Shown here piece after piece: positions 3,702 to 16,921 of a DNA stretch of 64,000 nucleotides (position 1 is the stretch's first letter; each line of letters opens with the position of its first letter). This DNA comes from Candidatus Dadabacteria bacterium (GTDB lineage: Bacteria; Desulfobacterota_D; UBA1144; Nemesobacterales; CSP1-2). The translations under genes and the position numbers were made by a program. The notes under the pieces were generated by a model. The model had not been told where the DNA came from. It did no database searches and worked only from the letters and a program-made list of their open reading frames with translations. The stretch lies in assembly GCA_963805855.1 (NCBI GenBank), contig CAWDVW010000007.1, positions 480,001-544,000 on the forward strand. The letters run 5' to 3'.

Positions 3702-4514
3702 CTATCCCTTGATCGATCCTGCCGTTAATCCTTCGACAATCCTCCTCTGGAATGCAAATGCAAGCAAGATAAGCGGTATGGTTACAACAACCGAAGCCGC
3801 TGCGATATCGCCCCACGGCACCTCGTGGAGACCAGGGAAAAGGGCAATCCCCACAGGGATTGTCCGAGAGGCAACGGTCGAGGTAAATGTTAGCGCAAAG
3901 AGGAACTCGTTCCATGAGAAAATAAACACGAGGATTGCCGTAGCAAAAAGCCCTGGGGCGGATAACGGTAGGATTATTCTATAGAAACTCTGAAAAACCG
4001 TGCAGCCGTCTACCCTTGAAGCAAGGTAGATTTCGTGAGGAATGCTTCTGAAAAAGCTGGTCAAAATCCAGATCGTAAGCGGAAGAGAAAAGGATGTGTA
4101 GGTGATTATTAACGCAAACACCGTATCCCTTAATCCGAGAGCCCTGATTATGATATAAAGGGGACTTACCGTCGCAATTGCGGGAAACATGGATACAGAC
4201 AGCACGAAGACCAAGATGAGTCCCTTTCTTCTCACATCAAGCTTCGCCAGCGCAAATGCAGCCAGTGAACCGATCACGAGTGAGATAACGGTTGTGCTGC
4301 ACGCTACAATAAAGCTATTGGCGATTATCCTGAAAAAGGGATGCGCTCGAAAGATGGAGAAATAATGATCGAACGTCGGGTTACGGGGTAGGATAGGCGG
4401 CAGCGTTGACAGTTCCGCATCGGGCTTTAGAGACGTTATGAACTGCCAGACGTACGGGCCCAGACAATAAGAACAAACGACCACGAGCAGGATGTAAAAG
4501 CCCAACCGCCTCAT
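3702..4514 (-). CDS. Carbohydrate ABC transporter permease (MalG-like)
   Basis: Hydrophobic, EAA-like loop ASRVDGC, FSWNEFLFA, C-terminal QRRIVEGLTAGSIKG. Confidence 0.93.
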   Translation of the reverse strand: MRRLGFYILLVVVCSYCLGPYVWQFITSLKPDAELSTLPPILPRNPTFDHYFSIFRAHPFFRIIANSFIVACSTTVISLVIGSLAAFALAKLDVRRKGLILVFVLSVSMFPAIATVSPLYIIIRALGLRDTVFALIITYTSFSLPLTIWILTSFFRSIPHEIYLASRVDGCTVFQSFYRIILPLSAPGLFATAILVFIFSWNEFLFALTFTSTVASRTIPVGIALFPGLHEVPWGDIAAASVVVTIPLILLAFAFQRRIVEGLTAGSIKG

Positions 4515-6700: not shown

Positions 6701-6825
6701 TTGCCTTCCAAATGACAAGATATGAGGGTCGTGTCTGAATAAATTGACAGCTTGAAAAGAACTCACTCAATAAATGGCTGCTCATAATATGCCATCCCAA
6801 TATACAGGGAGGCATAGTATTTCGA

Positions 6826-6854
6826 ATTATAACCAATAGGAAAACCGGTGTCAC
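6826..6854 (-). promoter_or_regulatory. Sigma70-type promoter, copy A, upstream of the sugar ABC operon
   Basis: Minus strand reads GTGACA-N17-TATAAT; near-identical copy at 11166-11194. Confidence 0.6.
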
Positions 6855-6988
6855 ACGTAGCCTATGGATAGATCGAATATATGCAAAGCATTTTATAAAA
6901 ACAACTAATTAGATTGCTTCAATTTAAATATTTCTTAGACCGAATCCTAAAATCTACTTGCTTCACTAATCCCAATTTTTTCTTATGA

Positions 6989-7152
6989 CTTCTTTGTCTT
7001 GATACAAAGAAGCAAAAATCAAGGGCTAACAAAAAATTAGGAATTATTAAATCAATTCCTACAGCTAAAAATATTTAATTCAACCACAACCCCAAATCTT
7101 TTTTTAACGCTTCCGGAATTGATTTTGGTAATTTTTTGAATGCCCATCTAAA
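6989..7152 (+). repeat. Structured dispersed repeat / candidate ncRNA, copy 1 (pseudoknot + long hairpin)
   Basis: CTTCTTTGT-CTTGAT-ACAAAGAAG stem-loop whose loop is complementary to the downstream ATCAAG, followed by nested inverted repeats. 156/164 identical to 14666-14829 by manual alignment. Confidence 0.85.
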
Positions 7153-7280
7153 TCATTTCAATTGGGGAAACCTTTAGAAAAAAAGTAGTTAAAAATATAA
7201 ACCATTATCCGCAAATTATGAATGACGGTGAATCGCAAAAGGCTCATACGGTATATCTATTTTATTAGGAACGACTGCTT

Positions 7281-7315
7281 CTCCTGAGCTTGGTCGAAGG
7301 ATATGCGTCCCCTAC
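7281..7315. repeat. REP-like palindromic remnant
   Basis: CTCCTGAGCTTGGTCGAAGGA followed by GCGTCCCCTAC (reverse complement GTAGGGGACGC); resembles REP-class extragenic palindromes. Confidence 0.4.
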
Positions 7316-10819: not shown

Positions 10820-11165
10820 AGAAGAAAAAGTTAGAAATAATACCTTTCGAATATTATTATTAATAAAAGTTTTGATCTTAATTCTACCTATCCCAAGCTA
10901 TATTAGCTCCAACTCAATCGGACAATCGTTTTCATACTACATATTTGAGTGCAGGCCATAATCGCGGTCTTTTCGTTCAAAATATAGATAGTGCCAGGCC
11001 TTGACATTTGACGTAAAGTAACATCGCTTATCTCCTTGTCGTGAGATGTTTAGCCCCTCTGTCTCTGACAAAACCCCGCTTAGTGTCGCTAAAACCGCCG
11101 ATGGCTAAAGCAATTCAACTATATCATCCGAAAATTCCACGCTAAAGTGGGGCATTTTAAGTCCA

Positions 11166-11194
11166 ATTATAACAAATAGGAAAACCAGTGTCAC
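11166..11194 (-). promoter_or_regulatory. Sigma70-type promoter, copy B, upstream of the cyclase module
   Basis: Minus strand reads GTGACA-N17-TATAAT, with an extended -10 (TGtTATAAT). Confidence 0.6.
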
Positions 11195-11363
11195 ACCTCG
11201 ACTATGGACAAGTGGGAGTTCTTGCAATTATTAAAGCCAGCTATTTCGTGGGCAGAATTATTACCATTTCATGAATAGATTTGTTTTCATTAATCCCTTT
11301 CAGCATGAAAAGGGTTTAAACTGCACTCCAAAAATTGCGTTAAGAGGATGAATGACGTAGTCA

Positions 11364-14469: not shown

Positions 14470-14649
14470 GGTTTGCCTCGGCACTGAGTTTATACTCAGA
14501 GAATCGAATTGGTTCTCGCTTTACTGTAGATGTTAGATATTTAGTGGGCAAAATCCAAAAAGTAATAAATTTCGCGGAAATTTACTCTTCCGTCATCCTC
14601 GGATGTGCCCCGCCTGCGACATGCGGGGACGAGCTTAACCGGGGATCCA
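14470..14649. repeat. Cluster of REP-like palindromes
   Basis: CTGAGT-TTAT-ACTCAG hairpin at 14484-14499; GTCATCCTCGG...CCGGGGATCCA (14592-14649) with a nested CCCCGC/GCGGGG hairpin. Confidence 0.5.
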
Positions 14650-14665
14650 TGGTTTAATTTTTTAT

Positions 14666-14829
14666 TTTCTTTGTCTTGATACAAAGAAACAAAAATCAAG
14701 GGCTGACAAAAAATTAGGAATTATTAAATCAATTCCTTCAGCTAAAAATATTTAATCCAACCACGACCCCAAATCTTTTCTTAACGCTTCCGGAATTGAT
14801 TTTGGCAATTTTTTGAATGCCCATCTAAA
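14666..14829 (+). repeat. Structured dispersed repeat / candidate ncRNA, copy 2
   Basis: 8 substitutions versus copy 1 over 164 nt, including a compensatory C-G to T-A change at the base of the first stem. Confidence 0.85.
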
Positions 14830-15000
14830 ATCCAAGATACTGTCACCGAATTATGTAACATCTAAACCGTACAATGTTAGGCTGGTCAATGGCAGAAGGA
14901 GGATTATAACCTTCGTAACTTCCCAACAATTCTAAATAATTCCTTGACAACCCTACAATTAAAGGTAATCATAATTTGTTATTCACAAGAGAGTTTACTG

Positions 15001-16531: not shown

Positions 16532-16590
16532 AGCGACAATTTTCACCAACGCAATCCAATGTAGTTACCGTTTCCGAAAGCGTGTTATTA

Positions 16591-16745
16591 CTTCTTTGTC
16601 TTGATACAAAGAAGCAAAAATCAAGGCTGTCCAAAAATTTGCTAAACATCATAAACTCCGACTAAAAAATCTAATTCAACCACAACCCGCAAATTTTTCT
16701 ATACGTCTTCGTTTCTGATTTTCTAAACGCAATTTTCGGAATGCC
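16591..16745 (+). repeat. Structured dispersed repeat / candidate ncRNA, copy 3 (diverged)
   Basis: First 36 nt identical to copy 1; conserved central AATTCAACCACAACCC; stem sequences differ but remain largely complementary. Confidence 0.75.
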
Positions 16746-16921
16746 AGTCAATTTTTTTGTAATGACGAAAGAATAGAATAATTACAATAACATAAGCCAA
16801 TAAACTAATGCGATCTACGACATTATTGCAATATCTCGCCTAAGTATTTGCAATATATGTGATGCACGATTAATTGGGAATCTAAGACCTTACATGAGGT
16901 ATTGGTCGCTATTTACCTATA

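Follow-up and report, generated by a model that had tools for sequence, protein, structure and literature searches.

In a 64-kb stretch of DNA from a Candidatus Dadabacteria bacterium (contig C7, positions 480001-544000, of the 3.1-Mb, 9-contig assembly G000; hereafter the window), a structured unit of ~155 nt recurs, which raises the question of what kind of element the unit is and how it is spread. This unit belongs to a widespread family of selfish, non-autonomous, structured hairpin repeats, with members in two phyla and in one phage contig, that was previously uncatalogued in the RNA-family catalogue Rfam 15. An initial annotation, made from the window sequence, had placed three copies at 6989, 14666 and 16591. 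All three are real, and all lie on the forward strand. Two of them are bare, and one is the interior of a miniature inverted-repeat transposable element (MITE):

6989..7144, forward strand: copy 1, a bare unit without MITE arms; match to the covariance model R1 at C7:486989-487144 (110.5 bits, E 7.5e-24).
14666..14821, forward strand: copy 2, 96% identical to copy 1, a MITE interior; R1 match at C7:494666-494821 (110.1 bits).
16591..16745, forward strand: copy 3, bare, of a diverged subfamily with ~75-80% identity to copy 1; R1 match at C7:496591-496745 (168 bits).

The unit consists of a near-invariant 5' hairpin, designated H0, and a stack of three or four helices of ~120 nt. In copy 1 these parts are located as follows:

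6989..7012, forward strand: H0 hairpin with a 9-bp stem and the 6-nt loop CTTGAT, the invariant signature of the family.
7018..7023, forward strand: ATCAAG, complementary to the H0 loop and five bases downstream of H0; pseudoknot or alternative hairpin.
7024..7144, forward strand: long hairpin, placed by RNA and DNA folds, the family alignment and pair counts.

When the window sequence was read, every pairing of the initial annotation was present. In the H0 stem, CTTCTTTGT (6989-6997) pairs with ACAAAGAAG (7004-7012) around the loop at 6998-7003, and in copy 1 the hairpin is not directly followed by a U-run. The long hairpin is closed by helix P1 (7024-7026 with 7142-7144) and continues with helix P2, in which CAAAAAATTA (7030-7039) pairs with TAATTTTTTG (7129-7138), and helix P3, in which AAATCAATTCC (7049-7059) pairs with GGAATTGATTT (7115-7125). 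It further contains an apical helix with a C/A-rich loop at ~7082-7094 and a junction motif near 7100-7110 (family consensus CTTAAC, then G). Folding of the top strand of 6989-7144 gave -32.3 kcal/mol as RNA (z -3.92) and -21.7 kcal/mol as DNA (z -3.54), in both cases with 0 of 200 shuffles as good. The reverse strand folded as RNA gave -35.4 kcal/mol (z -2.39), and 4 of 200 shuffles were as good. Throughout the family, H0 is followed by a linker that is rich in A and ends in ATCAAG. A closing helix (GGC/GCC or GAC/GTC) comes next, then two or three more helices, each with a CTTAAC-consensus bulge after it on the 3' arm, up to a clade-specific apical loop. Downstream of H0 the sequence differs between genomes while this architecture is constant.

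Comparison of the family members strongly supports selection on the predicted fold. Ten members from both phyla had compensatory changes in 22 of 44 predicted pairs. For the main pair count, which also took in the pseudoknot pairs, 69 distinct sequences were aligned, drawn from six genomes and the viral contigs. In this alignment, which was fitted to the model so that pairing is inflated, 91.3% of the cells were paired compared with 66.1% in shuffles, and 46 of 49 pairs had changed on both sides. All nine pairs of the H0 stem (helix 1) were changed on both sides. The covariation score was 0.487, compared with 0.118 for shuffled alignments, none of 500 of which scored as well, and 0.04-0.07 once the partners had been slid. 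The long nested hairpin of the initial annotation is thereby real. Its pseudoknot was borne out in one respect, a loop/ATCAAG pair that covaries (columns 20/112: U-A 48, C-G 7, A-U 2, other 3); of the remaining loop/ATCAAG pairs, two never vary and two are weaker. These pairs could equally mark an alternative hairpin, because a 6-nt loop that is fully paired without spare bases is sterically awkward. A small reverse-strand open reading frame (ORF) on copy 1 (31 codons, read by eye) was set aside as an explanation, since helix-length indels among the members and joint changes of the arms fit a fold and not a reading frame.

The ends of the unit were fixed near those noted earlier because contigs of other organisms, aligned to copy 3, begin to match at 16590-16594 and cease to match at 16745-16758. 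A repeat search of the window aligned 6990-7152 with 14667-14829 at 96% identity and reported the third copy from 16585 in two blocks of 73-88%. The earlier end of copy 1 at 7152 includes eight extra bases that are common only to the MITE-borne subfamily. The flanks of copy 1 had no likeness to the flanks of other copies. At the locus of copy 3, the unit is present at the same site in two same-genus genomes, G006 and G007 (three species of the genus in all), the orthologues are 85-92% identical, as are their flanks, which shows stability at one locus, not function. The G007 orthologue (C35:4387-4557) carries ~120 extra bases between H0 and the remainder of the unit. No usable empty site was found for copy 1, where the spacer of the same-genus genome G006 differs and is filled with repeats, or for copy 3, where the unit is present in both same-genus genomes and the site in other genera contains ~1-2 kb of different DNA.

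In its own genome the repeat occurs far beyond chance. BLAST found 68 places, and R1 yielded 49 matches at E<=1e-6, in agreement with the multicopy, dispersed, structured and non-autonomous element that had been proposed. The 47 places with two ends have H0 and their final ~55 nt in common and differ in their interiors. By length, these places comprise 3 of 155-158 nt, 10 of 162-164 nt, 1 of 178 nt, 18 of 191-202 nt, 12 of 204-237 nt and 3 of 290-407 nt. In the commonest interior (191-202 nt), an unrelated insert stands in place of the P3 left arm and the apical helix.

Most copies in this genome have conserved flanks of ~115-145 nt upstream and ~37 nt downstream, ending in terminal inverted repeats (TIRs) that start with TGTAGATG. 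Around copy 2 the following features were assigned:

14525..14866, forward strand: outer MITE around copy 2, composed of the left arm (14525-14665), the unit and the right arm; nhmmer match to the 349-nt MITE profile, profile positions 1-347 corresponding to C7:494525-494864.
14525..14550, forward strand: left TIR of the MITE, starting with TGTAGATG.
14608..14628, forward strand: small G+C-rich hairpin in the left arm of the MITE, present only in some copies, by comparison of copies.
14841..14866, reverse strand: right TIR of the MITE, read from the sequence.

The 349-nt MITE consensus profile, with TIRs of 26 nt, had 76 matches in the genome, and the MITEs measure 310-450 bp. A profile of the TIR gave 36 pairs no more than 700 bp apart with a spacing of 193-609 bp, 33 of these within 193-461 bp. 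TIRs are present on the MITE around copy 2 and on about 36-40 other units, and are absent from the bare copies 1 and 3 and from the bare units of genome G004, a deltaproteobacterial (delta) metagenome-assembled genome (MAG). Target-site duplications (TSDs) of the outer MITE were assessed by eye in the 26 units whose two flanks were both available. Nine had exact direct repeats of 5-6 bp, among them GCAAT six times, GAAAT and GCGAT. The remaining 17 comprised three with 4-of-5 matches, seven with the same 8-mer inverted on both sides and seven, copy 2 included, that were unclear or had none. No clean empty MITE was found; the 193-bp TIR pair, which lacks H0, is a rearranged fragment.

The autonomous relative of the MITE in this genome is an IS481-like element of ~1.02 kb, present at C6:62429-63463 and C5:174886-175920 with 99.5% identity. 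The best model for its 319-aa ORF is the IS481 family, at 174 bits and thus below the curated cut-off of 224 bits. Both copies have exact 5-bp duplications (ACAGT and ACGCA), and the ends of the element share 18 of 25 positions with the MITE TIR. Because TIR arms surround copy 2 and these ends are related to those of the IS481-like element, copy 2 is the interior of an IS481-type MITE. The unit has spread in its own genome mostly as cargo of this MITE type; copy 2 is such cargo, and copies 1 and 3 are bare. The statement of the initial annotation that there are no TIRs and no transposase in the window therefore holds for copies 1 and 3 but not for copy 2, which lies in a TIR-flanked MITE, and the IS481-like element stands elsewhere in the genome. 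The 191-202 nt class has spread despite a half-lost fold, and the full fold is therefore not needed for TIR-driven spread. The MITE was also found repeatedly inserted in the last bases of another abundant repeat, ending ...CTCGCAATGAC (for example, flanks at C7:377898 and C6:164920), which suggests a strong target preference and nested repeat layers.

It could be asked whether the unit is the mere interior of an ordinary MITE, with a hairpin that is a by-product of old inverted repeats and a fold that is unselected. Long imperfect hairpins are familiar among MITEs, of which ERIC/IRU, Correia and RUP fold in this way. Like these elements, the unit is non-autonomous and intergenic, and it is carried by TIR-flanked MITEs, of ~350 bp here and ~600 bp in Taibaiella. 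Most copies of both genomes lie inside such TIR-flanked units, and the variant with the unrelated insert (18 of 47 places) has multiplied all the same. However, the Taibaiella MITE has unrelated ends (82 TIR matches compared with 0 for a control pattern), so that two MITE types with unrelated ends carry the same interior. In the delta MAG G004 the repeat consists of the bare unit itself, which has neither TIR nor detectable TSD and lies between unrelated flanks. Of the three window copies, two likewise lack MITE arms. Moreover, the helices differ between genomes and yet are paired, the fold being kept across phyla by compensation in 46 of 49 pairs, which neutral decay would not give. The bare G004 units and the compensatory pairs largely refute the explanation as a MITE interior, and we consider it highly improbable.

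The exact 26-nt H0 pattern was found at at least 103 loci when one genome per species was scanned. The record titles among the matches listed included, from Bacteroidota, Taibaiella chishuiensis, Tenacibaculum, Flavobacterium lotistagni, Chitinophagales and Bacteroidales, and otherwise Thermodesulfobacteriota, Desulfobacterota and Deltaproteobacteria MAGs. R1 counted 11 copies in the Flavobacterium genome (G001), 9 in the Tenacibaculum genome, 33 in the Taibaiella genome, 24 in the delta MAG and 33 in an uncultured genome. Among 31 relatives of the own genome searched with R1, ten had 1-94 copies (eight of these 9 or more) and 21 had none. An even sample of the class of G001 had the unit in 8 of 101 genomes. 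The family multiplies within genomes, which hold either no copies or usually tens of them. In a viral collection, exact H0 was present in three contigs, one of which encodes a large terminase and has three co-oriented copies between genes; with only three exact matches, a viral origin of the family was rejected. Tandem arrangements of H0 were observed as well. A Chitinophagales MAG contig has three H0 hairpins at a spacing of 54 nt followed by one full unit, and elsewhere two H0 hairpins lie 89 nt apart, the second with a compensated stem.

A few full-text word searches, which cannot show unpublished status, found no description of the family in the literature. The initial annotation had likened the 5' part of the element to the Flavo-1 RNA motif, and this was not confirmed. 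With cmscan, no Rfam 15 family matched the 64-kb window at the gathering score, and the region 6800-7300 gave only chance matches (E>1) at E<=10. For 20 diverse members from both phyla, nothing relevant was obtained at E<=0.1, the matches being a tRNA and two chance matches. No tool result speaks for Flavo-1, which shares with the family an occurrence in Bacteroidota, and the Rfam model matches none of the copies tested. The probability that the unit belongs to Flavo-1 or another described RNA family is virtually nil.

Could the unit nevertheless act as RNA? Under this explanation, it would be a structured RNA module that acts after transcription, for instance by stabilising a 3'-untranslated region, by signalling processing or termination, or as a small RNA, and mobile DNA would have spread it passively. 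An RNA fold would explain the covariation just as well. In genome G027, in G005:C5, in G001:C12 and in the phage contig, co-oriented ORFs precede the units by 10-350 nt, and copy 3 is kept at its locus in the three species of the genus. On the other hand, orientation relative to the neighbouring ORFs followed no rule in 35 copies of G002-G004 (++ 10, +- 9, -- 8, -+ 7), which also agrees with the claim of the initial annotation that the element is not a cis-regulatory leader. The upstream gene was co-oriented in 19 and opposed in 15 of these copies, and one had no upstream ORF. The units of the G027 array stay on one strand between opposite genes, H0 has no following U-run, no Rfam family matches, and the commonest variant of the own genome has lost half of the fold.

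The composition of the pairs was also considered. G-U cells made up ~1-2.5% of pairs, and counts of G-T against A-C cells were contradictory between two alignments: A2 had 54 G-T and 24 A-C cells, and A3 had 35 and 66, respectively (89 vs 90 together). So few wobble pairs are more in keeping with selection on DNA for Watson-Crick pairs only, or with young copies, than with an RNA fold. Altogether, we regard an RNA module as possible but unlikely. From the initial proposal of a mobile structured RNA or single-stranded DNA element or a noncoding RNA, the non-autonomous multicopy repeat stands, and its active form may be RNA or single-stranded DNA.

The bare units gave no sign of the ends of a cut-and-paste element. 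They have no inverted ends, and in 15 copies of G004 and G002 there was no signal of target duplication, the longest word shared by the two flanks averaging 6.07 nt compared with 5.89 nt for mismatched flanks. The most telling strand pattern was found in the relative G027, where 45 of 46 copies lie within C1:2.2248-2.4997 Mb as seven forward copies followed by 38 reverse copies. At ~2.26 Mb, where the first block gives way to the second, the GC skew changes sign from positive to negative. Because the blocks flip at the skew turn, the strand that is read H0 first is always the lagging-strand template. The units hold this strand even between oppositely oriented genes. About 20 copies in G005:C5, all forward at a skew of +0.06, and four copies in G001:C12, all reverse at -0.03, agree with G027. 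The G027 pattern points to handling of the unit as single-stranded DNA. For IS608, strand choice by the lagging-strand template and attraction to termination sites are described in PMC5027513, and the G027 array resembles IS608 in its strand choice and in the piling of copies around the terminus.

Several further observations were made in G027. In the stretches C1:2251001-2271000 and 2300001-2320000, phage tail and fibre genes lie between the two oppositely oriented blocks of units, and the stretch at the skew switch looks like a prophage. In units at C1:2334001-2374000, a further ~75 nt before and ~35 nt after the unit are conserved, including a small G+C hairpin. G027 also has short forms in which H0 is joined straight to the small G+C hairpin, without the long hairpin.

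The loop region of H0 was compared by eye with the pC194 rolling-circle origin (PMC7072734) and agreed at 16 of 23 positions, including a pyrimidine run and CTTGATA. The unit differs from origins of the pC194 type in being chromosomal and multicopy, and no Rep_1, IS91-type or phiX-A-type gene was found in the carriers searched. The nick position of such origins is presumably CTTG/ATA. Single-strand origins also have a long orientation-specific hairpin, to which that of the unit may be likened.

We see about an even chance that the unit, as a non-autonomous element, is processed in the form of folded single-stranded DNA and is recognised through H0. Bare units would then be recognised by a trans-acting enzyme as folded single-stranded DNA exposed at replication forks. 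H0, with a loop region resembling a rolling-circle nick site, may serve as the site of recognition or cleavage, and the long hairpin may keep the strand folded.

A number of observations weigh against handling as single-stranded DNA, besides the inflated pairing in the fitted alignment. The replication-strand rule is clear only in G027 and suggestive in G005:C5 and G001:C12, and the G027 cluster could reflect local duplication or an array mechanism. The own genome has no strand bias: 17 MITE-borne copies agree and 22 disagree with the rule, as do 13 and 9, respectively, of the bare or short-arm copies. No bias is expected there if spread in this genome is by the MITE transposase, but the window itself then gives no support. 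Local 3-kb skews in G002-G004 were too noisy for a replication bias to be read. Relatives of the unit were also found in contigs of RNA libraries (three runs, low depth), and contigs of two libraries cover exactly 16590/1-16735/58 and run into the flanks, which counts in favour of an RNA module; however, these contigs show neither transcription nor strand nor ends, and carry-over of DNA is possible.

In addition, none of the enzymes tested (RAYT, TnpB, Rep_1, IS91-type, phiX-A-type, an adjacent integrase) fits as a partner. Rep_1 and Y2_Tnp (IS91-type) were each found in 0 of 5 genomes, a weak result since control genomes were likewise silent, and Phage_GPA (phiX-A-type) was found in 0 of 5 genomes. 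The TnpB domain was detected in 0 of 10 element-positive relatives and in 5 of 21 negative relatives, and a link to TnpB and omega-RNA was rejected for its absence from the ten carriers. Y1_Tnp occurred in all ten positive relatives, but also in 14 of the 21 negative ones and in different subfamilies, and no Y1_Tnp match was present in two carriers, G001 and G005. The check for co-occurrence with RAYT or HUH transposases, suggested in the initial annotation, thus yielded no specific partner.

The RAYT-like genes themselves were examined in the own genome, which has 10 Y1_Tnp matches, and in G027. In both they are flanked by their own unrelated short hairpins and not by H0. On the 4-kb contig C8 of the own genome, the RAYT-like gene has an inverted pair of a 23-nt hairpin at C8:3342-3364 and 4074-4096. 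RAYT was rejected as the partner on account of these hairpins, the differing subfamilies and the two carriers without Y1_Tnp. As a separate observation, the IS481-like copy at G000:C5:174886 sits, with its 5-bp duplication, in the loop of a hairpin of the 23-nt RAYT-flanking kind.

One array mechanism would be a cassette system, in which the unit is an attC-like or Xer-like recombination site and H0 the crossover, its two 9-bp inverted arms surrounding a 6-bp asymmetric centre. As in integron attC sites and clusters of attC sites alone (CALINs), structure is conserved while sequence varies, the site would be read as a folded single strand, and co-oriented arrays stand among small ORFs and are oriented to replication. 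G027 has 45 sites over 275 kb with small ORFs, 12 of the 20 ORFs examined being without a Pfam family, and G005:C5 has its ~20 sites all on the forward strand. Pairs of units just 250-350 nt apart resemble empty cassettes, and the short forms have H0 without the long hairpin. The orientation to replication matches that of chromosomal integrons, of which 25 of 30 have their bottom strands on the leading-strand template according to PMC5371416. A-C cells exceeded G-T cells in G027, G004 and G001, which would fit folding of the bottom strand.

In contrast to such systems, no tyrosine recombinase was found within or next to the G027 arrays, in the 20 kb beyond the array ends or at the inner ends. 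The nearest Phage_integrase matches in G027 are at 2.054 and 2.135 Mb or further, the closest of them ~90 kb from the array (2.225-2.500 Mb), and no integron integrase is nearby. On inspection by eye, the hairpin is not closed by an R''/R' pair of boxes (RYYYAAC and GTTRRRY); motifs of the CTTAAC type occur on the 3' arm only, as unpaired bulges. Between sites there are 0-6 ORFs and not one, the unit has an extra invariant hairpin, and the own genome and Taibaiella have scattered, randomly oriented copies. A cassette-array site is accordingly a distinctly improbable explanation.

Compared with the known systems as a whole, the unit works most like a PATE or a REP-type single-strand repeat, partly resembles an attC array and is MITE cargo in its own genome; it lacks defining features of each. 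With the PATEs derived from IS200/IS605 it shares the lack of inverted ends and of detectable target duplication and, presumably, hairpin-based recognition. Unlike PATEs, which have similar subterminal hairpins at both ends, it has its one invariant hairpin at the 5' end only; its 3' end closes the long hairpin, and a covarying hairpin of 120 nt fills the element. It further differs in having no TnpB link (0 of 10 positive relatives), no specific Y1 transposase and no conserved target word that could be seen. With the REP/BIME repeats of RAYT systems the family has in common intergenic hairpin repeats in tens of copies, in mosaic with other small repeats, and the presence of Y1_Tnp in the own genome. 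It differs from them in a unit five times longer, in the perfect H0 hairpin kept across phyla and in RAYT-like genes that are flanked by other hairpins or, in two carriers, in the lack of Y1_Tnp.

Beyond handling as folded single-stranded DNA, a more specific proposal can be made. An undescribed system of Bacteroidota and Desulfobacterota-type bacteria, which recombines or transposes single-strand DNA, would have the unit as its recognition site. Without an element-encoded transposase, the system would use a host enzyme at replication forks and build terminus-flanking, replication-oriented arrays (up to 45 sites, among accessory genes) in an integron-like or IS608-like manner. We regard this proposal as improbable. 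The invariant hairpin, the lack of ends, of detectable target duplication and of a partner gene, and the strand-locked terminus array of one genome together suggest a route of mobilisation beyond the transposase families tested. Once found, the enzyme could prove to represent a new mechanism acting on single-strand DNA, or could explain how unrelated MITEs capture and spread structured cargo. If the assignment holds, Rfam 15 lacks a large repeat family that spans two phyla and whose covariation signal is among the clearest obtainable, and annotation pipelines would leave the unit as blank intergenic DNA or call spurious small ORFs on it.

Two observations concern the position of the window. 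The GC skew of contig C7 changes sign, from positive to negative, at about 450-500 kb, around the window start (480001), which probably places the window at the terminus of replication. A tyrosine recombinase of 300 aa, with a top-scoring Phage_integrase match, is located at C7:474210-474728, 5 kb before the window. Finally, the window contains a second, unrelated direct repeat of 75 nt, the two copies of which are 77% identical and lie at 6794-6868, just upstream of copy 1, and at 11134-11208, 4.3 kb further on.

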